Positions 31,742 to 63,023 of a stretch of 64,000 nucleotides of DNA are shown here, piece after piece. Source of the stretch: Flavobacteriales bacterium (GTDB lineage: Bacteria; Bacteroidota; Bacteroidia; Flavobacteriales_F; PHOS-HE28); NCBI GenBank assembly GCA_041391785.1, contig JAWKNI010000011.1:1330-65329 (forward strand), given 5' to 3'. A program made the position numbers and the translations under genes. Below the pieces are notes generated by a model, which made no database searches, was not told the DNA's origin, and saw only the letters and a program-made list of their open reading frames with translations. Position 1 is the first letter of the stretch. Each line of letters opens with the position of its first letter.

Positions 31742-33094
31742 ATGGTGTTCCGTACTGTTTCTTCAGTCAGCTTACTGGCTATGGCGGTGATGGCCAAAGG
31801 TCAGTTCGGGATGGGGCTTGCCGGGGGATCATGGGAAGGGATCTGGGGGCTGCATCACCAACCAGCGAGCATCCTGTTGAACCAGGACAGGATGGAGGTG
31901 AATGTGTTCCGTGCGGGTATCGACGCATACGCGAATTTCCTTGAGATCGACCCCAACCGCTTCGGGATCTTGAATTTCAATGATGGGTTGGTCCTGGACA
32001 AGGAAGGACCGCAGGTGCACGGTACCGACCGCCTGGGTGAGAATAGCTTGTTCGATTTGCGCACATTGGGTCCGTCTCTGGCCAGGCGTGTGGGCAAGCA
32101 TGGGGCATGGGCGTTCACCACCGCTGGCCGGGTGATTTATACTGGGCTCGACCCGCGTGCCACCACTGGACGATTCGGCTTGGATACTCTGCTTCTTCGA
32201 GCGGGAGAAGAGCGGTTGATGGAAGCGGTGGACATGCGAGCAAACACGGCTACCTGGGCTGAAGCGGGTCTCACGTATGGCAGGACCTTCAATGATGCAG
32301 GTAAGGTGCGCATCCATGCAGCAGCTACGGGGAAGTTCATCGTGGGTGGGAGAGCCGGGTACCTTGTGGTATCCCCTCCTGTGGTCGAGGGTATGACCGA
32401 TTCCACCACGGCCATTGCGCAAGTGGACATTGACCATGCGTTGGCGTTACCCCACGACTGGAACACAGCGGGTCGCGGTTGGAACGCGGACCTGGGTGCG
32501 ATCATCGAAGTCATGAGGCGGGACTGGGCGCCGGATATGCGGCCATACCGGTTGCGTTTCGGTGTGGCATTCACCGACCTTGGATCGGTCAACTATAAGG
32601 AAGGGGCCGGCGTGTATCGGATCAGGAACGGCACCACCACCTCAGATCAACTGGCCGCATTGCAGGTGGATAATGTCGCTGGGTTGGATACTGCACTGAG
32701 CAGCTTGCTCCTCGGTGATCCGGTCCGGTCGCGCGTCGGAACCGCCTTCAAGTTGGGGTTGCCGGCCGCCTTGCACCTCAGCTTGGAGTTCTGCCCTGCT
32801 CAGCACTGGGCCGTTCGGGCCGAAGGCGTGTTGAATATGCGGCATCCGCCTGAGGCTCTGTCCACACGCGAACAGATCGCCATCACCCCGCGATTCGAGA
32901 CCCGTATGCTCATGGTCGCTGTTCCGTTCACCATGGACCGGTACGGTACGCGCGGGCTGGGGCTATGCCTTCGGTTGGGTGGCGCAATGCTCGGTAGCGA
33001 TCGCCTTGGTGGGCTCATCGGCATGGAGAACGGCGTAGGGGCCGACTTCTACTGCGGCATCAAGCTCCGGTTCAAAGAAAAGGAGCCCGAATAA
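31742..33094 (+). CDS. Secreted or outer-membrane-like protein of 450 aa with a signal peptide ('MVFRTVSSVSLLAMAVMAKGQ'). Its C-terminus ('YCGIKLRF') resembles that of the 37921-39318 protein.
   Basis: The ORF has non-spurious composition. The shared 'GIKL' C-terminal motif links it to the 37921 gene. Confidence 0.45.
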   Translation: MVFRTVSSVSLLAMAVMAKGQFGMGLAGGSWEGIWGLHHQPASILLNQDRMEVNVFRAGIDAYANFLEIDPNRFGILNFNDGLVLDKEGPQVHGTDRLGENSLFDLRTLGPSLARRVGKHGAWAFTTAGRVIYTGLDPRATTGRFGLDTLLLRAGEERLMEAVDMRANTATWAEAGLTYGRTFNDAGKVRIHAAATGKFIVGGRAGYLVVSPPVVEGMTDSTTAIAQVDIDHALALPHDWNTAGRGWNADLGAIIEVMRRDWAPDMRPYRLRFGVAFTDLGSVNYKEGAGVYRIRNGTTTSDQLAALQVDNVAGLDTALSSLLLGDPVRSRVGTAFKLGLPAALHLSLEFCPAQHWAVRAEGVLNMRHPPEALSTREQIAITPRFETRMLMVAVPFTMDRYGTRGLGLCLRLGGAMLGSDRLGGLIGMENGVGADFYCGIKLRFKEKEPE

Positions 33095-34143: not shown

Positions 34144-34701
34144 ATGAAGCCGATCAATGCTGCCCAGCGCCGGGGCCAGTTCCTTCGTTTTGTCCTACTC
34201 TTTCTGCTGGCGATGACACCGGTGGTGGTGTTCATGTACCTCCTTGGACGGAACGACAGCAAGGCATATGAAGCGCTCAAGAACGAGCGGAACGAACTTC
34301 ATCAAAAGGCCAAAGTACATATGGGCCATGCTGAATTGGTCGGGAAGGTTGCTCGAGCGAGCCGCTTGTTCCAACAGAGCGTGTTTGAGAAGGAGCCGGA
34401 CTTTCTGGGGTTCACTACAAAAGTAGACGGCGTGTTTCTCAATGCGATCAGGGACTTGGAAGAGGCATCAGATTCTCTTAAGGAGAAGGGAGGAGGGGCG
34501 AGCAGTGATAAAGAGCTTGTTGCGATCGCACAGGATTATGCTGCGACATCCAAGAAACTTCTGGAAGTGTACGTGGGCGGATTCGCTGAGATCGGTAGAC
34601 TTCGAAAAGATTATGCACAATGTGATAAAAGCCTTACCGAAAAAACGGTCGAGGTGACAGCGCTTACCACTAGTTTAGAGAATTGTAAGCGTTCCAGGTA
34701 A
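34144..34701 (+). CDS. Single-pass membrane protein with an N-terminal TM and a coiled coil. Candidate Bacteroidota-specific T6SS membrane-complex subunit (TssO/TssP-like?).
   Basis: TM 'FLRFVLLFLLAMTPVVVFMYLL'. It is the first gene of a plus-strand cluster inside the T6SS locus. The assignment is inference only. Confidence 0.4.
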   Translation: MKPINAAQRRGQFLRFVLLFLLAMTPVVVFMYLLGRNDSKAYEALKNERNELHQKAKVHMGHAELVGKVARASRLFQQSVFEKEPDFLGFTTKVDGVFLNAIRDLEEASDSLKEKGGGASSDKELVAIAQDYAATSKKLLEVYVGGFAEIGRLRKDYAQCDKSLTEKTVEVTALTTSLENCKRSR

Positions 34702-34731
34702 GGGCACATACCATACAATCCAGCTGATCAC

Positions 34732-35949
34732 ATGAAGGGACCTATCATTGCCTTTTTCGTGGTATTGGTCGTGCTTCTCACCGGTCTGCTCCTTTGGATG
34801 GACGACTCGATCATTGGAGCAATCCATGTGAAGGCTGGTAGTGATTCTGTTCCGAACAGTTCCTTGGTGATTGGGCAAGAGTATTATTTGCAGCCGGGGG
34901 ATGAGGTGGACGTGAGTGACTCCGAAGGTTTGCTTTGGCTTGTTCGGTCGGGCAACAATGATGAATTGGGCGATGTATTTGGACAAGAAATGTCCGTCCC
35001 GGTCTACAACTTTGGGGATACCGGCCGGTACTACATTGAATGCTCCCGCAACGCAAAGGTCATAGCGGTGGATTCCGTCTACGTGCGGCAGGGTGATCGG
35101 TTCGCGAGCCTGGGAGCCTGGTCTTCCTCGCCGGCCGATACGGCGGGTGCGTCCATTTATTTGACGAACAATTCGCAGAACGTCGCGGAGTGGAGATGGC
35201 GTGTGCATCGCCAAGGGACCCTTGTTGCCGAAGAAGGCGGTCAGAGCTGGAACTGGACCCCGATCGACACGGGGAGCCACATGGTGCGTTTGGACGTGCA
35301 GATGCGGTCGGGTGCCACCCATGCCGACTCCATGCTCGTGGCCATTGCGCCACCACCGCCCAAGTCGGCGGTGGCACCGAAGCCCAAGCCAACGCCAACA
35401 CCACCTGCACCCAGGCCCAAACCTGCACCCAAGCCCAAACCCACACCCAAGCCGAAGGTAGATCTCGCACCGCCACCCCCACTTGCTGGTGCATGCTTTG
35501 GAGCGAACCGGGCCCTATCCAGCACGAGCAAGGCCGATATGCCCGACCCGAAACGCGCCGATGTGCGCTGGGAGAAGGGAACAACGGAGTTCATCCTGGA
35601 TGTACATACCGATTGCAAGCTGAAGGACTTTCCACACTTCGCCAATTCCGAAGTTGCGGGCAACAAGGTGGCTGTCACCGTTGAGTGCATCAGCGAGGGC
35701 TGTACCGGAGAGAGCAGGTACACACGTTATTTCACCCCGGCGTTCGACAGCCAGAAGTGGGCCTCAAGGAGTGTGAACCTGCCCCTGCTCCTGGCAGGCA
35801 AGCGCTACCGTGTACGTGTGCAGCCCCAGGGGGACACCGACTATCTCGGCTACTTCGGCATCACATCGCAAGTGGTGAACACACCCTGCGCCACCATCAC
35901 CTTCCAACAGAACACCAGTTGCGTGTTCGATCTGGGTTTCCAGCACTAA
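34732..35949 (+). CDS. Single-pass membrane protein with a periplasmic domain and a Pro/Lys-rich linker ('PKPKPTPTPPAPRPKPAPKPKPTPKPK'). Candidate TssO/TssP-like subunit.
   Basis: TM 'IIAFFVVLVVLLTGLLLWM'; the linker is visible in the DNA as a 'cccaagcc' periodicity. Confidence 0.4.
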   Translation: MKGPIIAFFVVLVVLLTGLLLWMDDSIIGAIHVKAGSDSVPNSSLVIGQEYYLQPGDEVDVSDSEGLLWLVRSGNNDELGDVFGQEMSVPVYNFGDTGRYYIECSRNAKVIAVDSVYVRQGDRFASLGAWSSSPADTAGASIYLTNNSQNVAEWRWRVHRQGTLVAEEGGQSWNWTPIDTGSHMVRLDVQMRSGATHADSMLVAIAPPPPKSAVAPKPKPTPTPPAPRPKPAPKPKPTPKPKVDLAPPPPLAGACFGANRALSSTSKADMPDPKRADVRWEKGTTEFILDVHTDCKLKDFPHFANSEVAGNKVAVTVECISEGCTGESRYTRYFTPAFDSQKWASRSVNLPLLLAGKRYRVRVQPQGDTDYLGYFGITSQVVNTPCATITFQQNTSCVFDLGFQH

Positions 35950-35960
35950 CACCGTTGGCC

Positions 35961-37916
35961 ATGAACCGTCCATTGATCCTTTCCGCACTCGCGCCGACCG
36001 TTCAGTGTTACTCCGGCCTGCCCCGCATGGTGATGGGGTTGGTGCTGTGCATAACTGCGGCGGGTATACGGGGGCAGGAAATCACGATCACCGGCGTGGA
36101 GCCAGACCCGGTTTGCGCAGGGGGGGGCTTGGCGGTGGCGTTCGAGTTGAATGATCCGTTCAATGGGGGCAACGAGTTCACCGTTTGGCTCAGCGATGCA
36201 AGCGGTGACTTTGGCAGTGAACAGCAGATCGGGTCGCTTGCAGGTAATGTGTCCGAGACGATCGATGCGGTTGTTCCTCTCGGTGTAATGGCCGGATCAG
36301 GATTCCGGGTCAGGGTGAAAAGCACGGATCCGGAGGTCATCTCGGATGGGTCGGGTCCCTTTGAGGTCATTGCCTTATTAGTTTTCCCCGGTAGCTATGG
36401 TCCGTTCTGCAGCAATGGACCTGCGATCACCCTGGGTGGCACACCGTCGGGTGGTGTGTGGACGGGTATAGGTGTGAGCGGAAATGGTCCGTACACCTTC
36501 AACCCTTCGGTGGGCACCCAGACGCTCACCTATACCGCGACCAGCGGTAGCTGCAGCGACAGTGCGCAGACAACCATAACAGTCAACACCGCCCCTGCGC
36601 AACCGGATCCGGGGACATACGGCCCGCTTTGCAGCAATGATGACCCCATCGATCTTGCAGGTGATCCAGAAGGCGGAACCTGGACCGGTATAGGAGTCAC
36701 CGGCAACCAGTTCAACCCGAGTGTGGGGACACAAGCGCTCACCTATTCGATCACGAACGCGAGCAACTGTACCAGTAGCGCATCAACCACGGTGACGGTG
36801 ACCAATGCATCAGATGCGTCCATCACCTACAACGGATCTCCTTTCTGTGCATCGATCGGTTCAGCCGCGGTCACACAAAGTGGTTCGGATGGAGGGTCGT
36901 ATACCGCTTCGCCGTTTGGTCTTATTATTAATGTCAACACCGGTGAATTGGACCCCGAAGCCAGTACTCCAGGTACATACACGGTCACGTATGAGGTGCC
37001 TGCGAACGGAGTGTGTCCGATTTTCACTACCTCCACTACCGTCACCATCGTGTCCGTTCCGGAGCTTCCAATAGTTGCCGATCTGGGTGCCGATACGTTG
37101 TGCCACGGCCAGGTCACCTCTCTTTTTCTGGGGAACGACTATCCAGCGGGAACATCCTATTCCTGGTCCACCAGTGGTCCTGCCGAAATACTCAGCGGTG
37201 CCGACGAACCTATTTGTACGCTGGAATGGACGCATGCACCACCGTCCACCGGTCCAACTGGAAGTGGGGTTGCAGGGAGCTATACGGTCGCGGTGAATGT
37301 CGGTGGGTGTGCGAATCAGGTGTCAGGAACGATCACTGTGCTGGATTACTATGCCTCCTGTCCCAAAGGCATCGTTTTCTTCGAGCCGTACGGACTGGCC
37401 GTGATCGATCCGGTGGCGAACCATTTTCAGTGGGGCGCCATGGATGCCACAGGCGCGACTTTCACACCGATCGTGGGCGAGGTGGACCAAATCATGTTCC
37501 GGCCCGCGCTCGCATCCTTGGCAGGCGGTCTCCCGGTGGCTCCTCCTTATGTGGTCCGCAGTTCCATCTACGCCGATAAGTGTTTCTCGTACACGGCCCG
37601 GTGGGTGGATCAACCGGGGCTTGATCGGGAATGTTTGGTACCCACCTCAGGCATGACCACGGAGCCGGGCCATACGATCTACCCCAACCCGGGGGACGGC
37701 AAGTCGCTCACGGTGGAGGCTACGGGACCTCCGCTGGAGGAACCCATATGGTTCGAATTGTACGATATGCAAGGCCAGCAGGTGCATGCCGAACAAGTGT
37801 TGGTGCGGCCCGTCGCCCGGCTCGCTGCGGATCTTTCCGGTCTTGGACGGGGCATGTACGTGGTGCGCCTGCATAGCAGTGGCATGGAAGAGAACTTGAA
37901 ACTGATACTCGACTGA
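35961..37916 (+). CDS. T9SS-sorted surface protein with a signal peptide, at least 5 Ig-like repeats ('GP(L/F)CSN..PI.L.G.P.GG.WTG.GV.GN.FNPSVGTQ.LTY') and a type-A C-terminal domain ('TIYPNPGDGKSLTVEA...GMYVVRLHSSGMEENLKLILD').
   Basis: Repeats and C-terminal domain read directly. The start at ATG 35961 ('MNRPLILSALAP') was chosen over the upstream ORF extension. Confidence 0.7.
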   Translation: MNRPLILSALAPTVQCYSGLPRMVMGLVLCITAAGIRGQEITITGVEPDPVCAGGGLAVAFELNDPFNGGNEFTVWLSDASGDFGSEQQIGSLAGNVSETIDAVVPLGVMAGSGFRVRVKSTDPEVISDGSGPFEVIALLVFPGSYGPFCSNGPAITLGGTPSGGVWTGIGVSGNGPYTFNPSVGTQTLTYTATSGSCSDSAQTTITVNTAPAQPDPGTYGPLCSNDDPIDLAGDPEGGTWTGIGVTGNQFNPSVGTQALTYSITNASNCTSSASTTVTVTNASDASITYNGSPFCASIGSAAVTQSGSDGGSYTASPFGLIINVNTGELDPEASTPGTYTVTYEVPANGVCPIFTTSTTVTIVSVPELPIVADLGADTLCHGQVTSLFLGNDYPAGTSYSWSTSGPAEILSGADEPICTLEWTHAPPSTGPTGSGVAGSYTVAVNVGGCANQVSGTITVLDYYASCPKGIVFFEPYGLAVIDPVANHFQWGAMDATGATFTPIVGEVDQIMFRPALASLAGGLPVAPPYVVRSSIYADKCFSYTARWVDQPGLDRECLVPTSGMTTEPGHTIYPNPGDGKSLTVEATGPPLEEPIWFELYDMQGQQVHAEQVLVRPVARLAADLSGLGRGMYVVRLHSSGMEENLKLILD

Positions 37917-37920
37917 AGCC

Positions 37921-39318
37921 ATGCGCAACCATAGCCTACTCCATACGCTCGCGGCCGTGTTCGTACTGGGCATTACCCAGGCAGTGATGGCCAGCACGCC
38001 GTCGGCCACCCCGCTGGGAGCCGATTCGGTAAAGGACAAGGCCGTTGCCCTATTGGAACGTAACCTGGCATCGCTACGTGAGCATCGCACCAGTGGGGGG
38101 CAATACGCCGCCACCTTCGCTGAAGGCGCCCGGGTCTATTGCGATGTATGTGTACCACCGGCCCCCATGCCCTTTGAGCAGTATTATTTCCAAGTGACGG
38201 GCACCTTCCCGAACGGACTGGACCTCATGTATACGATCCATCATGGGCGGATCGAAATGGAACGGGTGGATGTGGAATACCATGTTACTATCCCATTCAC
38301 AAAGGATGTCCCCGCAATGGGTGCAGGAGGTCCTATTCCGGGCAAGCGCCAGCGATCCCATTTGAAAGCCCTCGTGGTCTATAATTTCACGAACGGCTAC
38401 CTCAGGATCAAGCAAATAGAACTGGACCAGGCACCGGGTTCCAACCTTTGGATGTTGGATGTTTCGCCCATGTTGGCGGTCGGCAAACCGGAGTTGGGTG
38501 CGCTGGCCGATCTGGCACCGAGTTGGAACGGGAACATGTTCCAAGTGGGGCTGATGCGCTACATGTACCCGGGCAAGGGCACCAACCGGGGCAACATGTG
38601 GCTCAAGGCCGGCTTGCGTGCCGGGCTGCGACAAGTACGGTTGCAGGCCGATGGTGTGGCGTACGAGACCACCGGCATCGCTCTACGGCCCACGAGCTCG
38701 GGCTTGCCAGCCGGTTCGGCGGTGCAGCATCACCTGGACCTTTCACAGCGCGTGTCCGACATCAACGAAAAGGTGACCAGTATGACCTTGGAAGTCCCTG
38801 TTGGATTGAGCAAGCGTTGGGCCATGTCGCGCAAGGCCGACCTGAGCCTTGAACTGGAACTCGGGATCGGCATGGAGCTCACCCGTAGCGTCAATGGCGA
38901 TTACACCATGGACCAGCTTGGAATGCATACGTTCACCTGGGCTGATGGGGTGGATCCGGTGACCAGCTCCGGAGCTGACCTGACCTATGACCAACGCCAT
39001 CAAGCCGTGACCGCTGCATCGGGTACGGAGTACAGCTTCTTTCAGGACGACCGCATGGTGCTGGACGATCTGGAGAGCAAAGCCAGACCCTACTTTTTCT
39101 GGGGCATCAACCCATCCGTATTCGTCCGGGGACTGAATGACCAGGTCAAGTACCAGTTCGGTCTGCGCGTGGCCATGGTGGGGACCAACCGCAATAGCGC
39201 CGTGGTGGACGGAACATACTTCGCCGACCAGGATGATCATGCGCGTCCGGCCCTGACCACCTTGGTGGATGGGCGCTTTCAGCCCTTTGTCGGTGTCTTG
39301 TTCGGGATCAAACTTTGA
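37921..39318 (+). CDS. Outer-membrane-like protein with a signal peptide; paralog of the 31742-33094 product.
   Basis: 'MRNHSLLHTLAAVFVLGITQAVMAS' and the C-terminus 'GVLFGIKL'. Confidence 0.5.
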   Translation: MRNHSLLHTLAAVFVLGITQAVMASTPSATPLGADSVKDKAVALLERNLASLREHRTSGGQYAATFAEGARVYCDVCVPPAPMPFEQYYFQVTGTFPNGLDLMYTIHHGRIEMERVDVEYHVTIPFTKDVPAMGAGGPIPGKRQRSHLKALVVYNFTNGYLRIKQIELDQAPGSNLWMLDVSPMLAVGKPELGALADLAPSWNGNMFQVGLMRYMYPGKGTNRGNMWLKAGLRAGLRQVRLQADGVAYETTGIALRPTSSGLPAGSAVQHHLDLSQRVSDINEKVTSMTLEVPVGLSKRWAMSRKADLSLELELGIGMELTRSVNGDYTMDQLGMHTFTWADGVDPVTSSGADLTYDQRHQAVTAASGTEYSFFQDDRMVLDDLESKARPYFFWGINPSVFVRGLNDQVKYQFGLRVAMVGTNRNSAVVDGTYFADQDDHARPALTTLVDGRFQPFVGVLFGIKL

Positions 39319-39323
39319 ACCTC

Positions 39324-41852
39324 ATGCGCATCCGTTTGCTTGTCGCGATCCCCGCGCTGCTGTGGCTGGTCGGCACGACCATGGCACAAAAGCCTGAAAA
39401 TGTGCTCTTCAAGCCGGTCAACTGGTTCCAGGTCAGGTATGATCATGAGAACGACCGGTTCTATAACGACCAGGGAGAACAGCTCAATGAGGAGTATTGG
39501 ACCTTCGCGTCGGGCAAGGGCGACAAGAGCCAGCGGTGGACCGTTTTCACCGATCGTGCGGGCGTGCTTCTGCGCAGTGAGCCACAAGCCGAAGCCGCAC
39601 CCACCTCATCCGCCGCGTTGCCTTTCGCGCAGGTGTTGTACGTGTTCAAGGAGGAGAAGGGATGGCTGTTGGTCGGGCGTGAATCGAACAGATCTGAGGG
39701 CTGGTGCGACAAGCGGCACCTCGTATTGTGGGACAAGCCGCTCGCCGAACATCGCACACGTATCGAGTTGAAGGCCTTTCTCGTCAACACGCTGACGGGC
39801 ATTGGAACAGAGCGCGGATCCGTACAGGGAGATCTCAAGCAGAAGTACGAGGTGTTCGATGGCCCCGGGTCGCGGGCCGAACGAAGGGAAACGAACTACC
39901 TCTACGATGTCTTCTACATCTACAAATACGATAAGGAGGGTGAGCGATGGCTTATTGGGCCGAATGAGATCTATAGCCAAAGTCCCTTGCTTGGCTGGGT
40001 GAATGCGCGCAAAGTGAAAGTGTGGGCGACCCGTCTGTGCCTGGAACCCAACTGGGAGGAGGCAGCGAAGGCCGAGCGCCGGGAAAAGAACGTCCGGGCG
40101 AGGCTGCTTCCATGGAACTCCACCCAGGTACAACAGCGCGCGTATCTACAGTCCGGTAATGGTGAGGGGCTGGTGGATGGGGATGAGAGCGAGCCGGCGT
40201 TCGATCGCTCGGGTCTGACCGGTGATCGGATGGACGCACGGCTGTTCCGTTATCCTGTGCTCGGCGCGCAAATGGAGGGCGATGCGAATTGCAGGTTCTT
40301 CACCGGGGTATCGGGTGTGATGAACGTCGGTGGCAGCGGAACGCTTGAGGGCTTCCGGAATGGGGACTATCTGAGAGTGCGCCGGTATTACGAGGCGTTG
40401 CGGGAGCAGAAGGATGTGCTCTGTGTCGTGTTCGTGCTTGAAGGAAGTGCTGATATGCGCACGCACATCGGCACCGTGAAGGAGACCATTGCCGCGCTGC
40501 AGCAGGAGTGCAAGAAGACAGGCATGACCGCCCGGTATGGGGTGGTCCAGTATTTCAATGAGTACGCTTCCGACAAAAAGGAGCCCGAATCGGCCTACAT
40601 GGAACAGCTCCCATTGACCAACGATGCCATGCAGGTGTTGGAATGGCTGGACAAGCGCATTTGCGAGGATAGGGGGGACAAAAGCGAAGCGCGCGCGGCC
40701 TACCTGGCATTGGCCCGTGGCATGGCCATGATGGAGAAGGGGCGGACCAATGTGCTCGTCCACCTCTGCAGCAGGCCCGACAATGGACGTGATGACCCAA
40801 CCTTCGGAGGTAAGTCCCAAACGGATCCCACGGACCTGGTGGCCGGCTTGGAAATGGGCAGGGCAACGCACTACCTGGGCTATGTCCTCAGCGGTGGTAC
40901 CACCGGGCCAACGGAACGGAAAGAAGCGTTCAACGGCATGGCCGAGGATGTGATGCCGGAATTGTCGACCGCGATCAGCAATCAGCTCAAGGGTATCGTC
41001 GAATTGGCCCGTGATGCGAAAGGGCGGGCATTGGCGCCCACGGTCGCCAGGACCAAAAAAGATGGTTCGGAAACGGCACGCATGGACCAATTCCATTTCA
41101 TGATGAAAGCCACCATGCTGGCCGATGGTACGAGCGATCTGCCACGTATGATCGTCGCGGATGTGGCCAATTCCGTGGAGAGCAGCAGGCAGGCCCTTGC
41201 AGCACTGGAAGGGATCGTGGACGATCGTTCGATGATCAAGGACCATGCACCCAGTTTCAGCTACTTCTATGGGCAGTTGACCGCGCAGGATGGGGTCGAT
41301 CGGGAAACACTGGACTTCCTTGCTCGGGAGAAGGTGCACGTGTTCACCAATGCGGCCACCTGGCATCGGGTCACGGGCATGCAACACCCGCTCTTCCGGT
41401 ATGTCCTGTTCTACGATGACCGCAGTTTGAACGCTGAGATCATTGCGCTCGATGAGTTGATCCGGGCCATGGAAACGATCAACATCGACGAATCCCGTGA
41501 ACAGTTGAGGACCCTTTGGCGGAAACGTGCGCAGGATGTCATCGGGTCCAAATACAGTGATAAGGTTCCTTTGGATGAGGTAAGGGCCAAGATGATGGGT
41601 GTTCATGACCTGAACATGGTCAAGCCCTTTGAAGATGCTTCCTTGCTCAAGGGGCTCACGTTGAACGATCTGGATAACAAGACCAAGTTCAACCAGACCG
41701 TGTTGGATGGTTACAAGAAGGCCGCGATCGCGAACAAAGAGGCCTTGAACGCGATAAAGACCCAGGGCCAGTACTACCAGGCTCCGGGCCATGAAGAACG
41801 GAAGGATGAGCGCCGTTACTACTGGATTCCCATTGAGTATTTGTTCAATTGA
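39324..41852 (+). CDS. Large secreted protein (~842 aa) with a vWA-like domain carrying a degenerate MIDAS ('VLCVVFVLEGSADM', 'NVLVHLCSRPDNG'). It is the first member of a tandem paralog pair.
   Basis: Signal peptide 'MRIRLLVAIPALLWLVGTTMAQ'. It aligns by eye along its whole length with the next gene (shared 'IELKAFL', 'LLGWVN.(R/T)KVKVWATRLCLEPN', 'LFRYPVLGA', C-terminal 'YWIPIEYLFN'). Confidence 0.6.
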   Translation: MRIRLLVAIPALLWLVGTTMAQKPENVLFKPVNWFQVRYDHENDRFYNDQGEQLNEEYWTFASGKGDKSQRWTVFTDRAGVLLRSEPQAEAAPTSSAALPFAQVLYVFKEEKGWLLVGRESNRSEGWCDKRHLVLWDKPLAEHRTRIELKAFLVNTLTGIGTERGSVQGDLKQKYEVFDGPGSRAERRETNYLYDVFYIYKYDKEGERWLIGPNEIYSQSPLLGWVNARKVKVWATRLCLEPNWEEAAKAERREKNVRARLLPWNSTQVQQRAYLQSGNGEGLVDGDESEPAFDRSGLTGDRMDARLFRYPVLGAQMEGDANCRFFTGVSGVMNVGGSGTLEGFRNGDYLRVRRYYEALREQKDVLCVVFVLEGSADMRTHIGTVKETIAALQQECKKTGMTARYGVVQYFNEYASDKKEPESAYMEQLPLTNDAMQVLEWLDKRICEDRGDKSEARAAYLALARGMAMMEKGRTNVLVHLCSRPDNGRDDPTFGGKSQTDPTDLVAGLEMGRATHYLGYVLSGGTTGPTERKEAFNGMAEDVMPELSTAISNQLKGIVELARDAKGRALAPTVARTKKDGSETARMDQFHFMMKATMLADGTSDLPRMIVADVANSVESSRQALAALEGIVDDRSMIKDHAPSFSYFYGQLTAQDGVDRETLDFLAREKVHVFTNAATWHRVTGMQHPLFRYVLFYDDRSLNAEIIALDELIRAMETINIDESREQLRTLWRKRAQDVIGSKYSDKVPLDEVRAKMMGVHDLNMVKPFEDASLLKGLTLNDLDNKTKFNQTVLDGYKKAAIANKEALNAIKTQGQYYQAPGHEERKDERRYYWIPIEYLFN

Positions 41853-41863
41853 CCATCGTGTTC

Positions 41864-44437
41864 ATGCTAACGTTTAGTAGTTCAACTAAGGTAAGATCGG
41901 CGGTTCTTTCCGTCCGAACCATCCGGATAGGTGTGGTCTCCTTGGCCTTGTTCGTTGGGACTATCGTTCGAGGGCAAAACTTCCAGAGGTTACCCGAGAC
42001 GTGGACGAGCGTCCGGTATGATCACAATACCCATGAGTATTACTTTGACAAGAACCCTAAGAAGGACTATGCTGCCGAAAAAAGTTCGACCAAGGTCACC
42101 CAATCGGCTTGGCTGGTCTTTTCGGATCGCGAAGGAACCGAGCTTTTCAACAAGCACCCTGGAAAGGGTGGTGAGCCCATAGGGCGACGGTTACGCTTCG
42201 GTGAGTTGCTGTATGTGTATGCGGAAGCGGGTCGGTGGATGCAGGTCGGCAAGAATGATTCCGGGCCTGAGGGCTGGTGTAAAAAGGACGACCTGGTCTT
42301 GTGGTCCAGGCCACTGAACGACCAACTGACCGGTATCGAGTTGAAGGCCTTTCTGATCAACCGGATCACTGCCGACGGAAAGTTGGACAAGCGGGAGTAC
42401 GATGGTGACTTGAAACAGCGCTACGAAGTATTCGATGGGCCTGATCCGGGCGCCAAGGTGATCGGTAATGAGTTGCTGTACGATGTGTTGTACATCTACA
42501 AGCACAGTGATGATGGGAAAGGCGGTGAGCGCTGGCTCGTGAGCGGCTATCATGGCTTGGGGCCGGCCACGCCGTTATTGGGCTGGGTGAACAAGACCAA
42601 GGTGAAAGTGTGGGCTACACGCCTCTGTTTGGAACCCAATTTTGACGATGCTGCCAGGTTGGAACGCCGCGATCGCGGGATACGGGCCAAATTGTACCCG
42701 CTATTGCAGCAGGACCAAACAGAGGAATACCTCAAAAGCGGCAAGGGTGAGAAGGGTTTGGTGGATGGAGCAGGTAGGGACCCTGCCTTCCATGATGACC
42801 AGTTGTCCTCGACCAGGATGGACGGTAAACTCTTTCGCTATCCAGTACTTGGCGCAACCATGATCGGCACGGATAACTGCCAGTTCTACACCGGTGTCTC
42901 GGCGCGCATGAACGTGGCCGCGACGGGATCCCTGGAAGGCTTCAACGAGGAGGTTTATCTACAAGCTCGAAAGGAATATGAAGCGCTGAAGGAGAGGAAG
43001 GATAAAGTGGGGGTCGTGTTCGTGATCGAAGGAAGCGCGGGTATGCAAGGAGTTCCAGATATTGTGAAACGGGCCATTCAGAGCATTCGTGGGCAGCATG
43101 GTGGTGAGAAGGTCATGCGGTTCGGTGCGGTGTATTACAGGAACGAATTCGCTCACCTACCTGCGGATGAGGATCCGGAGACAGGATACCTTGAAGTACT
43201 ACCGTTGAGTGATGATGTTGCGAAAGTGTTGGGCTGGATCGGTAAACGCAGTGCGCAGAATTGGGGTGATCACAATGACCAACGGGCGGCACACCTGGCC
43301 TTGCAACGCGGATTGGCCTTGTTGCAGCGCTATGAGACCAATGTCATTGTCCATATAGCGGCACGGCCCGACAATACCGAGGACCCCACATTCGGTGGCA
43401 AGACCTTGGTGGACCTTGTCGAGTTGGGCCGTGGCCTGGGATTGGGGTATTCAGCTCATTACCTGGGGTATGTGCTTCCGGCTGTGGAGCATGACACGGT
43501 CAATTTTGTAAGAGCAGCTGCTTATGAGGGGCAGCGCCAGGTCATGTCGGAATTGGCGGTGGCGCTGAACAATCAGTTGAAAGGGTTGGCCCAGTTCGGG
43601 TTGGATGTGACAGGCAAGGGAAGGGCTATTGCGCCGGAGGAGATCGAGGTCACCGGCTCGGATGGGTGGAAGGTGTCGAGCCTGGATGGGTTCTACTTCG
43701 TCATGAAGGCACATTTGCTACCGACCACGGCCTCTGCCTTGGATACCAGGATCGCCAACGACGTGTCCGAGTGCCTGGCCATGAGCCAACGTACGCTCGA
43801 TGGGATCGGTGCCGTGGTGGAAGATGAGTCGTTCGTTAGTGACAGGACCACGGACATCACCTTCTCAGTAAGTGAACTACTTGGCCTCAGCCCTGAAGCG
43901 AGGAGCACGTATGACCACCTTGCCAGACACAAGGTGCACATTTACCAAGACGCGCGCACGTACTATCGCGTCGCAGATCTTCAGCAACCGATCTTCAGAT
44001 ATGTCCTTTTTTACCGGGACCTGGACTTCGAAAGAGAGATCGCGGAACTACAGCGATTGGTCACATCCCTGGCAGGCCACAATGCGGACGATTCCGTGGA
44101 GAAGCTCGCGCAACTGTGGCAGGCAAGGGCAGAGTCGACCCTTGGCACCAATTACGACAAGCAGAAGACCACCCTGGCCGACATTCAGGAGAAGCTGATG
44201 GGCATCCATAAGATATCGATGGTCAAGCCCTTCCGTGATGCATCGATCCTGGCGGACATTCAGTTCAAGGATCTGATGGATCGTAAGATCGATAGAAAGA
44301 AGCTCGGTGATTATCAGAAGGCTGCTGAGGCCAACCTCGAGAAATTGAAAGCCATAAAGAGCCAGGGTGTGAGCTACACCATTCCGGGCAAGGATAGCAA
44401 GTTCTACTGGGTGCCTGTGGAATATCTGTTCAACTGA
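41864..44437 (+). CDS. Large secreted vWA-like protein (~857 aa), second member of the tandem paralog pair.
   Basis: See the previous feature; 'VGVVFVIEGSAGMQG', 'NVIVHIAARPDNT', C-terminal 'FYWVPVEYLFN'. Confidence 0.6.
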   Translation: MLTFSSSTKVRSAVLSVRTIRIGVVSLALFVGTIVRGQNFQRLPETWTSVRYDHNTHEYYFDKNPKKDYAAEKSSTKVTQSAWLVFSDREGTELFNKHPGKGGEPIGRRLRFGELLYVYAEAGRWMQVGKNDSGPEGWCKKDDLVLWSRPLNDQLTGIELKAFLINRITADGKLDKREYDGDLKQRYEVFDGPDPGAKVIGNELLYDVLYIYKHSDDGKGGERWLVSGYHGLGPATPLLGWVNKTKVKVWATRLCLEPNFDDAARLERRDRGIRAKLYPLLQQDQTEEYLKSGKGEKGLVDGAGRDPAFHDDQLSSTRMDGKLFRYPVLGATMIGTDNCQFYTGVSARMNVAATGSLEGFNEEVYLQARKEYEALKERKDKVGVVFVIEGSAGMQGVPDIVKRAIQSIRGQHGGEKVMRFGAVYYRNEFAHLPADEDPETGYLEVLPLSDDVAKVLGWIGKRSAQNWGDHNDQRAAHLALQRGLALLQRYETNVIVHIAARPDNTEDPTFGGKTLVDLVELGRGLGLGYSAHYLGYVLPAVEHDTVNFVRAAAYEGQRQVMSELAVALNNQLKGLAQFGLDVTGKGRAIAPEEIEVTGSDGWKVSSLDGFYFVMKAHLLPTTASALDTRIANDVSECLAMSQRTLDGIGAVVEDESFVSDRTTDITFSVSELLGLSPEARSTYDHLARHKVHIYQDARTYYRVADLQQPIFRYVLFYRDLDFEREIAELQRLVTSLAGHNADDSVEKLAQLWQARAESTLGTNYDKQKTTLADIQEKLMGIHKISMVKPFRDASILADIQFKDLMDRKIDRKKLGDYQKAAEANLEKLKAIKSQGVSYTIPGKDSKFYWVPVEYLFN

Positions 44438-44442
44438 GCAAG

Positions 44443-45189
44443 ATGGTACCTGCATTCCATCTGAAGCACCTGGCCTTGGGCTACGACGGAACGGAGGTGC
44501 TCAGGGTGCCGGAACTGGTCATACCAAGCGGGGGCATGGTCTTCGTGATCGGGCGCAGTGGAACAGGCAAGAGCACCTTGTTGGAGTCCATCGGGCTCAT
44601 GTCCGACACCTTCCTTCGGCGGCCGGGTGTAAAGCCCGAGTTGCACATCGAAGGCAGCTCTTTCGATCCGGTGGCACTTTGGGACCATGACAGGGAGCAG
44701 CTTGCCCGGATCCGGCGCGAGCGGTTCAGCTTCATCTTCCAGAGCACCAACTTGATGCCCAACTTCACCATCGGTGAGAACATTCGGATGGCTGCTTTTT
44801 CGCACGGTATGGATGAGCAGGCCACGCAGGATGGCATAGCCGCGCTGTTGGAGGCACTGGGGCTCCCGCATGGCACCCTTGAGAAACCGGCGCATGCCGT
44901 TTCCGGCGGGCAGCGGCAGCGGGTGGCCTTCATTCGTGCCTTGATCAAGGACTTCTCCGTACTGCTGGCCGACGAGCCCACGGGCAATTTGGATGCGGCG
45001 AATGCGAACACGCTGTTCCAGGTGCTCAAGAACGAGGTGACCCGCCGGAAGGCCACGGCCGTGGTGGTCACCCATCATCTGGAACTTGCCGAGCGGTTCG
45101 GAGACCTTATTCTGGACCTACGCATCCCGGACAATGGTGGAGCCCAAAGTGCCGAGGTACACATACACCGGAGCGGTGTGTCCGCTTAG
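44443..45189 (+). CDS. ABC transporter ATP-binding protein of the LolD/MacB/FtsE type.
   Basis: 'GRSGTGKSTL', 'VSGGQRQRVAFIRAL', 'LLADEPTGNLD'. Confidence 0.85.
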   Translation: MVPAFHLKHLALGYDGTEVLRVPELVIPSGGMVFVIGRSGTGKSTLLESIGLMSDTFLRRPGVKPELHIEGSSFDPVALWDHDREQLARIRRERFSFIFQSTNLMPNFTIGENIRMAAFSHGMDEQATQDGIAALLEALGLPHGTLEKPAHAVSGGQRQRVAFIRALIKDFSVLLADEPTGNLDAANANTLFQVLKNEVTRRKATAVVVTHHLELAERFGDLILDLRIPDNGGAQSAEVHIHRSGVSA

Positions 45190-45195
45190 CCTGCC

Positions 45196-46773
45196 ATGCA
45201 ACAAGCAGCAGGAATGATCGACAAGGTGCAACGCAGGCTTTTCCTTACCCGGGAGTATGAGGCCATCCGGGGTAAAGGGGGGTATGTGTTCTGGATGCTT
45301 TACGCCATCATGTTGGTGGCGCTGGCCGCTGTGGCGATCGGCCGCACCGGTCTGGAGCATCTGCAAGGTCGCATGGACGACCCATTCACCACATGGGTCG
45401 ATATACCCGCATCCAACACGACCGTGGGCGACCATTACGACGAGCTGCGGGCGTACCTCAACGACTGTGCCCGTACGGGCCGCTTCCATGCACGAAGCAC
45501 TTCCGGTAGTTACGCCTTCAGTGTGCAGGGATTGGTGGTCGGGGAGGAGCCTTATTGGGACTACCTGCGATTGCAGAGCTTTGGTTTCCATGCGGATAGT
45601 GCCCTGCTCAGGGCTGTTCTGGGCGAAGGCAATCTGATCACCGAGCTGGTGGACACGGATGCATTGAGCAGTCCTACCGCATACAAGGATGGTATCATCA
45701 TCACGGCCAATGCATTGAAGGAGTTGGGTTACGACTTACAAGACCTGCGGGAAAAGAAGATCATCCTGCGCAATTCGATGTACCATGTGCCGGTGCGTGT
45801 CCTTGCCGTGGTACAAGCCGTTCCGGGCCGACGCGATGTCTTCATGGAGCACCATCTCCTGAAAGGGATCCAGGAGGCCGAGGAACGGAAATTCCTTTCC
45901 ACAACGGTCGACACGACCCATGTGCTGTTGGGCTTTGCGAACCAAGGGGAGGCACGTGCTGCTGCAAGCACGATCGGGCAGTTGTTCGGTGTAGGGCCCC
46001 AGGCGGTGGATGTGGTACCCGATACGTCGACCCTGACGCATGCATGGCGGGTCCGCTGTGTGGGCTGTGGTCTGCCATTGTTGACGGAGCGGAGCATAGC
46101 TCAGGGTCAGTTGGCGATCCATCGCGAACTGAAAGGCTTCATGCCGGTGGTACTCCATGAGGTGAACTACCGGACATCGGATCCGTCCGACAGCCACGGG
46201 GAGACCTTGGATTCATGGTTCGACCATCTGACCATCACGTTCTCGGACCTGGATTCCATTGCTTCCTTCCAGCGTGACCTGGTGGACAAGTTCAAAGTGG
46301 AGTTGGACCTCGACCGGGTGCGCTCCATGGAGAATTTCGGGTTCATCGCGGGACTGTCCAGGTTCCTGGTGGCGGCCTTGGTCCTTTTCGCCGTGCTTTC
46401 CATCCTGTTGTTCCTTTACAATCTGCTCCAGAACCACCTGGAGCGGATCAAGATGAACCTTGGCACCTTCATGGCATTCGGCCTCCCGGAGCATTTTCTC
46501 TACCGGGGCTACCTCCGCATCATCGGTAAGCTGCTCCTTCGCGCGATGCTGGCGGCAATGGCCACGCTCGCCATCCTTCAGGCTCTGGTATGGTTGGTAC
46601 AGCGTATGGGCGTGCAATTGCCGGACCTGATCGCCACGCTCTCGGTGATCGGAAATCCCTGGCTCTATGTGACCCTGCTAGCCCTGTCGCTTGCCGGTTT
46701 CATCATCTTCCGCTGGCAGTTGCGTCGCTTTCTGGCCAGCACACCCGGAGACCTGATCTATGCCCGACGATGA
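45196..46773 (+). CDS. FtsX/MacB-type ABC permease with an N-terminal TM, a large periplasmic domain and a C-terminal 3-TM bundle.
   Basis: Topology read from hydrophobic segments; the stop overlaps the next gene's ATG (ATGA). Confidence 0.7.
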   Translation: MQQAAGMIDKVQRRLFLTREYEAIRGKGGYVFWMLYAIMLVALAAVAIGRTGLEHLQGRMDDPFTTWVDIPASNTTVGDHYDELRAYLNDCARTGRFHARSTSGSYAFSVQGLVVGEEPYWDYLRLQSFGFHADSALLRAVLGEGNLITELVDTDALSSPTAYKDGIIITANALKELGYDLQDLREKKIILRNSMYHVPVRVLAVVQAVPGRRDVFMEHHLLKGIQEAEERKFLSTTVDTTHVLLGFANQGEARAAASTIGQLFGVGPQAVDVVPDTSTLTHAWRVRCVGCGLPLLTERSIAQGQLAIHRELKGFMPVVLHEVNYRTSDPSDSHGETLDSWFDHLTITFSDLDSIASFQRDLVDKFKVELDLDRVRSMENFGFIAGLSRFLVAALVLFAVLSILLFLYNLLQNHLERIKMNLGTFMAFGLPEHFLYRGYLRIIGKLLLRAMLAAMATLAILQALVWLVQRMGVQLPDLIATLSVIGNPWLYVTLLALSLAGFIIFRWQLRRFLASTPGDLIYARR

Positions 46774-47273
46774 AAGACACACGTAAGCCATCCTTGCTAC
46801 TTGCATCGACCTGCATCCTGCTGTGCGGAACACTCCTATGGTCGACAAGCTGCAACAGCTCGGACCAGCGCACCAGCGACCCAACGGTCACCAACGAGAC
46901 CGCCACGAAGGTCCTGGAGCAACTTGACCAGGAAGCTGCCGAAGCGCGCCAGGCGGCCGAGAAGGCGGGGGTACCGGAAGAGACCATCGAAGCGATGGAA
47001 CAGTCGCAGGAGGACAGGCGCAGCCGGTTGGAGCAACAGAACAGCGACTCACCCTATAAGGGGCTTTCAGGGGCTGAGATCGAGGCCATGATGGAAGAAC
47101 TTCTGGAAAAGTACCTGGCCGATCCATCCACCGGTACCTATGAAACGGTCATGAACACGTTCCGGGAGCCCATGGTCAAGCAGTACTACGACAACAACGG
47201 CCCGGAGGTGAAGGCCCGACGGAAGGCGATCGTGGATAGGATGAAGGCGGCTAAGGCTGGAGGCTCCGAGTAG
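46772..47273 (+). CDS. Lipoprotein of 167 aa ('LLLASTCILLCGTLLWSTSC' lipobox-like) with an acidic helical body.
   Basis: Signal plus Cys; translationally coupled to the permease. Confidence 0.55.
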
Positions 47274-47280
47274 ATCGGGA

Positions 47281-47862
47281 TCAGTGCTGGAACGTCCTTC
47301 GCTGCCTATGCTCTTGTAGAATTCGTTCGTTCAAGGGCAGTATCGTGTTCAAGACTTTGAGTATTCGGTCTATGGCCTCCTTGTTCGTATCGCAGCGCTT
47401 GTTCAGTTCCTGTCGGGCCATTTCGTCGAAGTGAGGTTGGCTGCTGAAAAACTCGAAGAAGAAGCTCTTTGCGACCAAGGTCTTTCCCAACGCAATTAGC
47501 GCATCACATTGGTCCGGCAATTGCGACATGCGCTGTTTCTCTTCGCGCATGGCGGTCACGGCCTGGTTGGTCGCCAAGGCCGAAAAGGCGTTCACACCGA
47601 AATGGATCTGCATCCTTTCTTCATCCATTCGGGATAATGGTACTATGCGTCTTTCGTACATCAATTCGCTGATCGCGATCAGGGCGACCAGATCATCGTT
47701 CGCATTGGTCCAAATATTCTCGAAAGGACGACTGCTATACGACCTGATCTTTCGCTCCAGGTCGCCAGAGGGCTTGCCTTTTACTTTATCGATCACCATT
47801 GGGCCACCAGCAGAGATCAACTCGCCGATCAACTCACAGATTATCTTGGTTTGTGGTCGCAT
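47281..47862 (-). CDS. Hypothetical cytoplasmic protein. It is the last gene of the hcp-proximal cargo cluster and may be an immunity protein.
   Basis: ORF; lower GC than the T6SS core. Confidence 0.4.
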   Translation of the reverse strand: MRPQTKIICELIGELISAGGPMVIDKVKGKPSGDLERKIRSYSSRPFENIWTNANDDLVALIAISELMYERRIVPLSRMDEERMQIHFGVNAFSALATNQAVTAMREEKQRMSQLPDQCDALIALGKTLVAKSFFFEFFSSQPHFDEMARQELNKRCDTNKEAIDRILKVLNTILPLNERILQEHRQRRTFQH

Positions 47863-47940
47863 TGAAAGAGGGGATGGGCTTTTGAGCTTTGTGCAGCCAG
47901 CTCCAGAATTATGGCAACATTGATGCGGCGGGCATCCTTC

Positions 47941-48690
47941 TCAGTCGAATGCTTTCAGGTTATCCTTCAGGTCCATACCTGCGAACAGGGTGGCGATCAC
48001 TGCACCGGGCCCTCCAAGAAGGACTCGCTGTCCATGCTCGGTCAGGATCCTTTTCGACCTTTCCTGGGCCACGGCGAACACTATCCCAGTGCCCGTTCCT
48101 TTGAAGGCCAGCACATCCGCTTTCCGTGGGTCGCTGATCACATTGATGGCTTCGGTCGCCGCTGTATAGCCGGTGGCGATCGCGGATCCAGCTCCGGGAG
48201 TGAACACGGAGATCCACGCAACACCCGTATCGGCACCGGCCTTGACCACGGAGTAGGCTCGGCCCCATTTAGCGGCCAAGTCGCCTTCACGGGCGTTGTG
48301 TTGCATCACTTCCTTCCGCAGTTCTTCCATGGCATGCTGCAACTGGCGGGTCCGTTCCCCCAGGCGGTTGATGAAGCCCACGTATTCCGCCCATCCCACA
48401 CCGGGCCGGTTGAGATGATCCGTTACCCGGGACTGCACCTTCCACTGGTACTCCTTTTTCAATCGGCCGTACAGGGTCATGTCGATGTCGAGGTTCTTCA
48501 GGCCTGAGATGGTGCCAAAGGAAAATGCCTTGACGATGAACCCTGCCTTTTCAAAGGTCACCTTGTACGAATCATGCAGGGCCTGTATCGTGATGTACCG
48601 GTTGATCGCAGCCTTGTCCCTGTCCAGGTCGACCACGACCGCGTTCAACTTCAGTCCCTGGTTTCTGGGATCGGTCCGGGTGTTTGCCAT
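47941..48690 (-). CDS. Hypothetical protein with a glycine-zipper-rich hydrophobic segment ('GADTGVAWISVFTPGAGSAIATGYTAA', 'GTGTGIVFAVAQ', 'LLGGPGAVIATLFAG'). Candidate membrane-targeting T6SS effector.
   Basis: GxxxG/GxxxA arrays were read directly; the gene is in the hcp-linked cluster. Confidence 0.4.
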   Translation of the reverse strand: MANTRTDPRNQGLKLNAVVVDLDRDKAAINRYITIQALHDSYKVTFEKAGFIVKAFSFGTISGLKNLDIDMTLYGRLKKEYQWKVQSRVTDHLNRPGVGWAEYVGFINRLGERTRQLQHAMEELRKEVMQHNAREGDLAAKWGRAYSVVKAGADTGVAWISVFTPGAGSAIATGYTAATEAINVISDPRKADVLAFKGTGTGIVFAVAQERSKRILTEHGQRVLLGGPGAVIATLFAGMDLKDNLKAFD

Positions 48691-49052
48691 GGTATCACTG
48701 CTTTTGACTTACTCGAGCTTGTTCAGTGTGCCGAGTGTGAGAGGTCTTTCAGGCTGTCGGATCTTCACATGTCATGGAATGCGTCAGGAGGTTTGGTCCA
48801 ATGGGTGCTCCAGATCCCACTCGGATCAAGGGTCATGGTGCATACAACTTCCTCACAAGTATAGACCTGTTTGGTCCATATGGCCCAAGTAAATTGCAGT
48901 CCATCGAAAGCGCCAGCCCCCTGCCGAACTGTCCGAATATCCGCTGAGTGCGATTAGTCCGGCAAAAACTCCATTGGTGAGGTTGGACTTACGGAGAGCA
49001 TGCACTATATGTCTTTATAGATGGACTCATATGCGACTTACCAAAGGCGATC

Positions 49053-62678: not shown

Positions 62679-63023
62679 TTACGATATTTTTCCCATCAAT
62701 TGCGCGGAAAGCATGTCCACCGGGGGGAGTACGATGGCCATGCTTTTCTCCGACACCTCCATGGGGTCCCCTTTTCCATAAAAATGAACGAGATCCTCAT
62801 GCAGGCGTTGCAGGTCGCGCAACAACTGCTGGGTCTTGGGGTCCCTGCGCTGTTCACCTGGAAGCCTGAACTTGAAATGTCTGATACTCTCGTCCAGGCG
62901 ACAGAGATGACCGTTCGCGACGGCAATGGCCACAATGGGCAGTTCGCGGGCCGTGGCGTATCTCATTTCCGAGCGGACCTGGCCGATCGACCGTGCTATA
63001 TCGTTGAACGTACTTGACATCAC
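62679..63023 (-). CDS. Hypothetical 114-aa protein between the LytTR regulator and clpV.
   Basis: ORF whose start overlaps the regulator gene's stop by 4 nt. Confidence 0.35.
   Translation of the reverse strand: MMSSTFNDIARSIGQVRSEMRYATARELPIVAIAVANGHLCRLDESIRHFKFRLPGEQRRDPKTQQLLRDLQRLHEDLVHFYGKGDPMEVSEKSMAIVLPPVDMLSAQLMGKIS

Follow-up and report, generated by a model that had tools for sequence, protein, structure and literature searches.

Homologs of TssO and TssR and a TssP-like protein are encoded together with a predicted type VII ABC transporter inside a T6SS-iii locus of a Flavobacteriales bacterium

The 64,000-nucleotide stretch of DNA analyzed here, hereafter the window (contig JAWKNI010000011.1 of the Flavobacteriales bacterium assembly GCA_041391785.1; positions are counted from the first nucleotide of the stretch), contains a complete type VI secretion system (T6SS) locus of the T6SS-iii type at ~29.9–63 kb. 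This locus encloses an operon of nine plus-strand genes, designated G1–G9, which encode predicted homologs of the membrane complex proteins TssO, TssP, and TssR together with a predicted ATP-binding cassette (ABC) transporter. The nine open reading frames (ORFs) were located within positions 34144–47273 from an ORF listing and its translations, are separated by gaps of −4 to +30 nt, and are backed as coding frames by statistics on the GC content of third codon positions (GC3) in a window with a GC content of ~0.58–0.60. The nine-gene plus-strand cluster described in a first-pass annotation of this DNA is therefore real and forms a tight operon. The same annotation had the last three genes coupled by ATGA overlaps; such an overlap is present only at the G8 stop and G9 start, and 6 nt separate G7 from G8. 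The products of G4, G5, and G8 are identical to the hypothetical proteins R2815_11545, R2815_11550, and R2815_11565, respectively, which are listed by NCBI under "MAG: Flavobacteriales bacterium" (MAG, metagenome-assembled genome).

The membrane complex of T6SS-iii has been defined only recently, in 2024, and for Bacteroides alone, where TssN, TssQ, TssO, TssP, and TssR of Bacteroides fragilis form an essential, megadalton-sized assembly (Bongiovanni et al. 2024, PMC10781749). TssN is the inner-membrane hub, with five transmembrane (TM) helices and a cytoplasmic domain; TssO has a single N-terminal TM helix and an elongated helical periplasmic domain, and TssQ is a second TssO-like single-TM helical protein; TssP combines a TM helix with two PKD-like domains and a third periplasmic domain (PMC10781749). 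Canonical TssR is an outer-membrane lipoprotein with a signal peptidase II (SPII) signal, and TssO, TssQ, and TssR were reported as "absent or unidentifiable" in many Flavobacteriales (PMC10781749). Pairwise BLAST and phmmer comparisons of G1–G9 with TssQ, TssO, TssP, and TssR of Bacteroides finegoldii gave noise-level matches only, and it is because pairwise similarity lies at this level that these proteins have seemed unidentifiable. Alignments of the window families were compared with those of the canonical families using hhalign, the canonical tssQ-O-P-R genes being taken from annotated T6SS-iii loci in Bacteroides finegoldii, Capnocytophaga, Tenacibaculum, and Bernardetia plasmid records.

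G1 (34144–34701, 185 amino acids (aa)) and G2 (34732–35949, 405 aa) each have one N-terminal hydrophobic helix. In G1 this TM helix is followed by a helical periplasmic domain, and the G1 family aligned with canonical TssO over its full length (154 columns, hhalign probability 96.1%, E 2.8e-9). The alignment with TssQ covered only the N-terminal 72 columns (93%, E 3.4e-7), and the match to the Pfam TssO model (PF17561) was weak both in G1 (E 0.058) and in its orthologs. Based on the profile comparison, G1 is assigned as a TssO. G2 is predicted to start with a TM helix and two PKD-like beta domains, followed by a Pro-rich linker that leads into a C-terminal domain containing Cys. Its family aligned with canonical TssP, for which genes annotated as "PKD domain-containing protein" were used, across the PKD-like domains (columns 31–193 against 26–180; 88%, E 3e-6), and the C-terminal domain was left unaligned. 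As G2 also occupies the TssP position between TssO and TssR, it is assigned as a TssP-like protein. An HMM (hidden Markov model) scan of the window found a single ORF of the TssO/TssQ family and no equivalent of TssQ. The possibility that G9 is a disguised TssQ or TssO was rejected, with hhalign probabilities below 2%.

G5 (start at 39315 or 39324, end at 41852; 842–845 aa) and G6 (start at 41849 or 41864, end at 44437; ~857–862 aa) are paralogs with 43% identity, and both carry a signal peptide and a von Willebrand factor type A (vWA)-type domain. G5 matched the TssR_VWA model (PF20782) above threshold (E 3.5e-7), with weak, sub-threshold matches to the TssR_C, TssR_M, and TssR N-domain models, and G6 matched the N domain (PF17643, E 1.4e-5) as well as TssR_VWA (E 6e-5). 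The family of G5 and G6 aligned with canonical TssR over 664 columns (hhalign probability 98.7%, E 1.6e-16), and the two proteins are assigned as tandem TssR homologs with the four-domain architecture of N barrel, M, vWA, and C domains. A search of PDB sequences with the TssR-family profile matched only the vWA domains of collagen VI. Canonical TssR proteins have LAC or IGC lipoboxes, whereas G5, G6, and all of their orthologs have signal peptidase I (SPI) signal peptides that end in AQ or GQ and lack a Cys or lipobox; the TssR of this clade is predicted not to be a lipoprotein, unlike Bacteroides TssR. A second TssR copy is also found in two relatives, as an ortholog broken into two ORFs in locus L022 (5100–7736) and as a C-terminal remnant of 124–137 aa in locus L005 (12444–12857), from which the second paralog appears to be decaying in these relatives. 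The public annotation of G6 (R2815_11555, 743 aa) begins ~119 codons late, as the signal peptide and the first TssR homology lie close to the beginning of the 862-aa ORF.

The next three genes encode a predicted ABC transporter and a lipoprotein. G7 (44443–45189) matched PF00005 (E 7e-22), and its Walker A (GRSGTGKST), signature (VSGGQ), Walker B (LLADEP), and H-loop motifs are all intact; G7 is assigned as an ABC ATPase of LolD/FtsE/MacB type whose catalytic motifs are preserved. The best NCBIfam matches were TIGR03608 (putative bacteriocin export ATPase, E 2e-41), LolD (E 6e-40), FtsE, and MacB-type models, all far below the family cut-offs. G8 (45196–46773, 525 aa) has a topology of TM1, a ~310-aa periplasmic domain, and TM2–4; we take this periplasmic domain to be larger than that of MacB or LolC, by estimate. 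No match to the Pfam FtsX model (PF02687) was found in G8 at E ≤ 0.1, and none to PDB sequences with the G8 profile. The AlphaFold2 (AF2) model of G8 (predicted local distance difference test (pLDDT) score 82) was compared with the PDB using Foldseek, which returned MacB (5lil, E 2e-9) and then LolCDE, YbbAP, BceAB, HrtBA, and FtsEX (E 2e-9 to 1e-3, probability 1.0). As the distant G8 homolog P0030 also bears a weak match to PF02687, the fold matches and this homolog together identify G8 as a predicted type VII (MacB/LolCE/FtsX-fold) ABC permease. The third gene of the trio, G9 (46770–47273), encodes a small helical lipoprotein of 167 aa with a lipobox Cys that is conserved across orthologs. 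A MacAB-TolC-type pump was ruled out, since genes for a membrane fusion protein (MFP) and TolC are absent from the operon, in which no HlyD/MFP or TolC family member was matched with Pfam or NCBIfam, and Lol-like release of TssR was set aside given the absence of a lipobox from the TssR proteins of this operon. Some relatives combine ATPase and permease in a single fused protein of ~900–1080 aa with MacB architecture (L048 8531–11560, L057 5414–8230, L058 8831–11689, L059 7361–10603, and L068 5348–8071).

The remaining two genes lie between those for the TssP-like protein and TssR. G3 (35958–37916, 652 aa) contains three ~65-aa Ig (immunoglobulin)-like repeats and ends in a type A C-terminal domain (CTD) of the type IX secretion system (T9SS), which was matched by TIGR04183 (34 bits against a cut-off of 23, E 2.2e-8) and by PF18962 (27.4 bits against 27, E 4.3e-6; residues 665–741 of the long ORF). 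The longest ORF starts at 35685, and the signal peptide starts at 35958. With T9SS-CTD orthologs at the same position in L001, L005, L019, L036, and L013, G3 is predicted to be a T9SS substrate and surface protein. G4 (37921–39318, 465 aa) has a signal peptide, amphipathic beta segments, and a conserved C-terminal beta-signal (F-x-G-h-x-h-G-h-x-[LF]). No Pfam family was matched by G4, and no PDB sequence by its family profile; an exhaustive HMMER search of 1.84 billion representative proteins retrieved only 17 relatives and linked no named family. The G4 family did align with ~500-aa proteins in the syntenic position of distant loci that encode TssR and the ABC transporter (hhalign probability 96%, E 2.8e-9, 343 columns), and one such counterpart contains an OMP_b-brl_2 domain (PF13568, E 4.9e-10). 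We regard G4, with moderate confidence, as a probable outer-membrane beta-barrel with an N-terminal periplasmic domain. No similarity was found between G4 and a neighboring DUF5723 protein (PF18990, E 1e-16; 450 aa) encoded at 31742–33094 on the plus strand between two minus-strand DUF4123 adaptor genes, and a relationship between the two was rejected.

Much of what the first-pass annotation had read into these products holds: two N-terminally anchored single-TM proteins (G1 and G2), a T9SS-sorted protein with Ig repeats (G3), and two tandem secreted vWA-like paralogs of ~850 aa (G5 and G6). Its outer-membrane-like protein, G4, has gained the distant syntenic homologs and the beta-signal, although this support is indirect. 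The proposed trio of ABC ATPase, FtsX permease, and lipoprotein agrees with the PF00005 match of G7, the fold model of G8, and the lipobox of G9, with the qualification that G8 itself does not match the Pfam FtsX model.

The T6SS genes surround the operon on the minus strand, as had been proposed. Upstream are genes for two DUF4123 adaptors and a PAAR protein, with housekeeping genes starting below ~29 kb, and downstream are those for an M23 peptidase, Hcp, TssK, TssN, TssG, TssF, TssE, VgrG, TssC (PF17541, E 1e-224), TssB, and ClpV. TssN (52367–53284, PF17555 E 2.3e-25) is encoded outside the nine-gene span among the baseplate genes, flanked by TssK (51189–52481, E 3e-30 to Bacteroides TssK) and TssG (53307–54257), the same arrangement as in canonical loci. 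An HMM scan of the locus found no TssO, TssP, or TssR genes besides the copies in the operon.

For the conservation of the operon, contigs with homologs of its proteins were compared, and a metagenome scan using the G8 alignment added 47 loci. The order TssO, TssP-like protein, T9SS protein, G4, TssR, ATPase, permease, and lipoprotein was found in L001, L003, L005–L010, L019, L020, L023, L030, and L036; as a whole, the layout is seen again at 23–69% identity in about 14 other loci, with TssR at 29–69% identity among the loci of the same order and G8 down to ~28% (L036). In L005, L019, L020, L023, and L030, the genes for Hcp, TssK, TssN, TssG, TssF, TssE, and VgrG lie directly downstream, as in the window, and L007 has a short downstream flank with only an Hcp gene. 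The linkage to T6SS that was expected across relatives is hence conserved in many related contigs. The same module is present in the cultured organism Cryomorpha ignava QSSC1-22 (L010). TssR-like homologs are sparse, with 15 clusters in 5.8 billion proteins, and tblastn of G8 and G6 against a plasmid collection found no match. An ABC transporter was next to TssR in none of the four canonical T6SS-iii loci (Bacteroides, Capnocytophaga, Tenacibaculum, and Bernardetia), and one for T6SS-iii is mentioned neither in the 2024 membrane complex paper (PMC10781749) nor in a 2026 review of T6SS accessory genes (PMC13584744). The pairing of TssR with a MacB/Lol-type ABC transporter, a probable outer-membrane barrel, and a T9SS-exported surface protein is previously undescribed for T6SS-iii.

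The most constant feature of the module is the position of TssR, which directly precedes the ATPase and permease in all related loci with enough upstream sequence (40/40); a seeming exception, L064, was an HMM miss, as tblastn finds the TssR C-terminus directly upstream. This adjacency bears on the idea that the trio is a dedicated exporter or a Lol-like trafficking device, acting on G9, a bacteriocin-like peptide, or an immunity factor and mechanistically unrelated to TssR. Such a role would fit the bacteriocin-export and LolD models that head the NCBIfam matches of G7, the place of LolCDE among the top fold matches of G8, and the lipoprotein gene that always follows the permease, even in distant loci. 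We nevertheless consider it very improbable, as an invariant TssR–ATPase–permease order would be hard to explain if TssR were irrelevant to the transporter, the NCBIfam scores do not approach the family cut-offs, no gene for a peptide precursor, MFP, or outer-membrane channel is present, and distant loci do not share a conserved G9 sequence.

A second group of loci carries the module away from T6SS genes. In loci with a permease 21–30% identical to G8, no T6SS core gene was found within 10 kb; a core of outer-membrane barrel, TssR, ABC ATPase, and permease is encoded in this setting in L013, L037, L043, L045–L049, L059, and L066. The TssR proteins of such loci match all four Pfam TssR domains strongly (in L047, VWA 1.6e-30 and N domain 6.7e-21; also in L049), and some of them carry the NCBI TssR annotation in Bacteroidales MAGs. 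Often a second TssR paralog without the vWA domain and a G4-like protein are encoded upstream. In L013, from Saprospiraceae, genes for a T9SS-sorted protein, a G4-like protein, TssR, the ABC transporter, and a lipoprotein are surrounded by housekeeping genes. L066 encodes a GroEL identical to proteins of Candidatus Marinimicrobia MAGs and, at 395–5963, a TssR above all four Pfam thresholds followed by ATPase, permease, and lipoprotein genes, which would place TssR outside Bacteroidota and, within the 15 kb seen, outside a T6SS locus.

These T6SS-less loci, one of them with a Marinimicrobia GroEL, raise the question of whether G3, G4, and G7–G9, with or without TssR, constitute an independent system for surface assembly or adhesin export that is merely co-located with the T6SS, an alternative to which the dependence of G3 on a different secretion system, the T9SS, also lends some weight. 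For the clade of the window we judge this improbable. There, the five genes are interleaved with those for TssO, TssP, and TssR in a tight operon whose order is kept at 23–69% identity in about 14 loci, and these loci adjoin PAAR or DUF4123 genes and often the T6SS core. The position between G4 and G7 is taken by TssR, an essential T6SS component in Bacteroides, and the locus has no other TssO, TssP, or TssR genes that could serve the T6SS. The first-pass annotation had left room for an unrelated surface-assembly system; with TssR in the middle of the conserved block, that idea does not hold at the window locus, but something of it survives elsewhere, in the loci where the core stands without T6SS genes nearby.

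Directly downstream of several distant modules are genes for FHA, FHA-RDD, Ser/Thr kinase, and PP2C proteins (L047 11748–16190 and L049 12622–21445; also L037, L044, and L053), neighbors that favor a signaling role over an assembly role. One PP2C of the distant loci is fused to a peptidoglycan-binding domain, and L049 also encodes an alpha/beta-hydrolase-vWA protein. By analogy with TagQRST of Pseudomonas aeruginosa, a module that reports damage to the envelope or contact with cells, G7–G9 and TssR could form a sensory or regulatory module that decides when and where the T6SS assembles and has no structural part in it. The TagTS complex resembles an ABC transporter and shares the COG classes (COG1136 and COG4591), TagQ is an outer-membrane lipoprotein, and TagR is a periplasmic protein, all encoded in a T6SS cluster (PMC13584744). 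The downstream genes of the five distant loci correspond to the PpkA/PppA/Fha1 partner set, and transporters of the BceAB type, known sensors, are among the fold matches of G8. TagR is not known to contain a vWA domain. Genes for a kinase, phosphatase, or FHA protein were not found by HMM scan in the 64-kb window, nor in its T6SS-linked relatives; in Bacteroides fragilis, TssR is a structural subunit that is both stoichiometric and essential (PMC10781749), and TagR belongs to COG1262, a family other than that of TssR (PMC13584744). We therefore consider a purely regulatory module rather unlikely for the window, although less so than the two alternatives above.

On balance, we think it probable that the products of the operon make up the part of a variant T6SS-iii membrane complex that faces the periplasm and outer membrane, and that this complex is coupled to a type VII ABC transporter. 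In this arrangement G1, G2, and G5/G6 would work with TssN, whose opposite-strand gene neighbors those for TssK and TssG. As TssR is predicted not to be lipid-anchored here, it may be held between the G4 barrel, the G9 lipoprotein, or both, and the large periplasmic domain of G8. Mechanotransmission is a general principle established for MacB, LolCDE, and FtsEX, and G7/G8 could likewise act on TssR as an ATP-driven mechanotransducer, with ATP hydrolysis in the cytoplasm being converted to work in the periplasm that assembles, positions, or opens and gates the TssR part. This arrangement would then substitute both for the missing TssQ and for the missing lipid anchor. The T9SS would export G3 and display it on the cell surface close to the complex, where it might serve in contact or recognition.

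Several observations weigh against this interpretation. The match of G2 to TssP is limited to the PKD-like half at a probability of 88%, and the AF2 model of G4 (pLDDT 35, from a three-sequence alignment) offers no support for a barrel. The MFP and TolC partners usual for MacB pumps are absent, and the role and target of the ABC transporter are inferred from gene order. Within 10 kb, L001, L003, L008, and L010 show only PAAR or DUF4123 genes and no T6SS core, and the distant TssR–ABC loci have their Ser/Thr kinase, PP2C, and FHA neighbors. The suggestion in the first-pass annotation that the cluster encodes TssO, TssP, TssQ, and TssR is upheld by profile comparison for TssO (G1), a TssP-like protein (G2), and TssR (G5/G6) and fails for TssQ. 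The argument that the number of genes corresponds to TssO, P, Q, and R plus extras does not stand, as there is no TssQ, TssN lies outside the cluster, and five of the nine genes (G3, G4, and G7–G9) are something else.

If the operon is such a membrane complex variant, the module of outer-membrane barrel, TssR, and ABC transporter may be the older trans-envelope device, kept by the T6SS-iii of this clade and lost from Bacteroides-type loci. Homologs of the membrane complex were reported not to occur outside T6SS loci, and the origin of the complex was left open (PMC10781749); the loci in which TssR, with all four Pfam domains above threshold, and a MacB/Lol-class ABC transporter occur without T6SS genes nearby provide a candidate ancestor. 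We tentatively propose, as a conjecture to which we give less than even weight, that an outer-membrane beta-barrel, TssR, and a type VII ABC transporter constitute an ancient autonomous trans-envelope machine of Bacteroidota and their FCB relatives, that this machine is the ancestor from which the T6SS-iii membrane complex was recruited, and that the T6SS of the Cryomorphaceae-like clade of the window still needs its ATP hydrolysis to build, gate, or trigger the envelope channel. If true, this would be an energy input to the membrane complex without counterpart in any characterized T6SS. The locus shows what fills the Flavobacteriales gap in one clade, namely divergent TssO, TssP, and TssR candidates, to which a T9SS substrate, a probable outer-membrane barrel, an ABC transporter, and a lipoprotein are added. 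The findings further point to a connection, open to testing in the cultured organism Cryomorpha ignava, between T6SS and mechanotransmission in the periplasm driven by an ABC transporter, and perhaps to one with T9SS.

A few other features of the locus and of related T6SS-iii loci were recorded. At the edge of the T6SS locus, the gene directly past ClpV (63020–63910, minus strand) encodes a response regulator whose DNA-binding domain is of the LytTR type, a possible transcriptional regulator of the T6SS. The M23 peptidase-domain protein (49848–50273, minus strand), which adjoins Hcp, is probably a peptidoglycan-degrading effector. Between G9 and the M23 gene, three minus-strand ORFs of 193, 249, and 220 aa without Pfam matches occupy 47281–49715, and a homolog of the 249-aa ORF lies near the Cryomorpha ignava module. 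In L015, the Hymenobacter volaticus plasmid NZ_CP095063.1 carries a T6SS-iii core (TssG, TssN, TssK-like, TssE, TssF, ClpV, TssB, TssC, and Hcp) with no annotated TssO, TssP, or TssR within 20 kb.

Among known systems, TagQRST of the Pseudomonas aeruginosa H1-T6SS (Casabona et al. 2013; PMC13584744) resembles the operon in placing genes for a LolD-type ATPase, a LolE/MacB-type permease, a lipoprotein, and a periplasmic protein within a T6SS cluster; the likeness of G8, G7, and G9 to TagS, TagT, and TagQ is one of shared ABC superfamily. The Ser/Thr kinase, PP2C, and FHA neighbors (cf. PpkA, PppA, and Fha1) extend this likeness to the TagQRST pathway in distant relatives of the module only; the window has no kinase, phosphatase, or FHA gene. 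TagQRST further differs in belonging to a T6SS-i of another phylum and in having the COG1262 protein TagR and not TssR. The type VII ABC systems MacAB-TolC, LolCDE, FtsEX, YbbAP, BceAB, and HrtBA share the predicted fold of G8, and LolD, FtsE, and MacB are among the best matches of G7; as in MacB, the permease of some relatives (L048 and L057–L059) has the ATPase fused at its N-terminus. Unlike these systems, the operon has no gene for an MFP, TolC, LolA-type, or EnvC-type partner, and the invariant neighbor of its transporter is TssR.

The closest counterpart is the T6SS-iii of Bacteroides fragilis. The window has homologs of its TssN, TssO, and TssR (in its four domains) and a protein resembling the PKD-like half of its TssP, with TssO, the TssP or TssP-like protein, and TssR encoded together in both; in both, TssN is encoded between TssK and TssG, and the cluster stands beside Hcp genes in a complete T6SS-iii locus. 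The relation between the window proteins and those of Bacteroides was detected only by profile comparison. In contrast to B. fragilis, the window has no TssQ and no DUF5457 gene after TssR, its TssR is duplicated and predicted not to be a lipoprotein, and its TssP-like protein has a Pro-rich linker and an unaligned C-terminal domain. To the shared components, the window adds five conserved genes, those for a T9SS substrate, an outer-membrane barrel candidate, an ABC ATPase, a type VII permease, and a lipoprotein.

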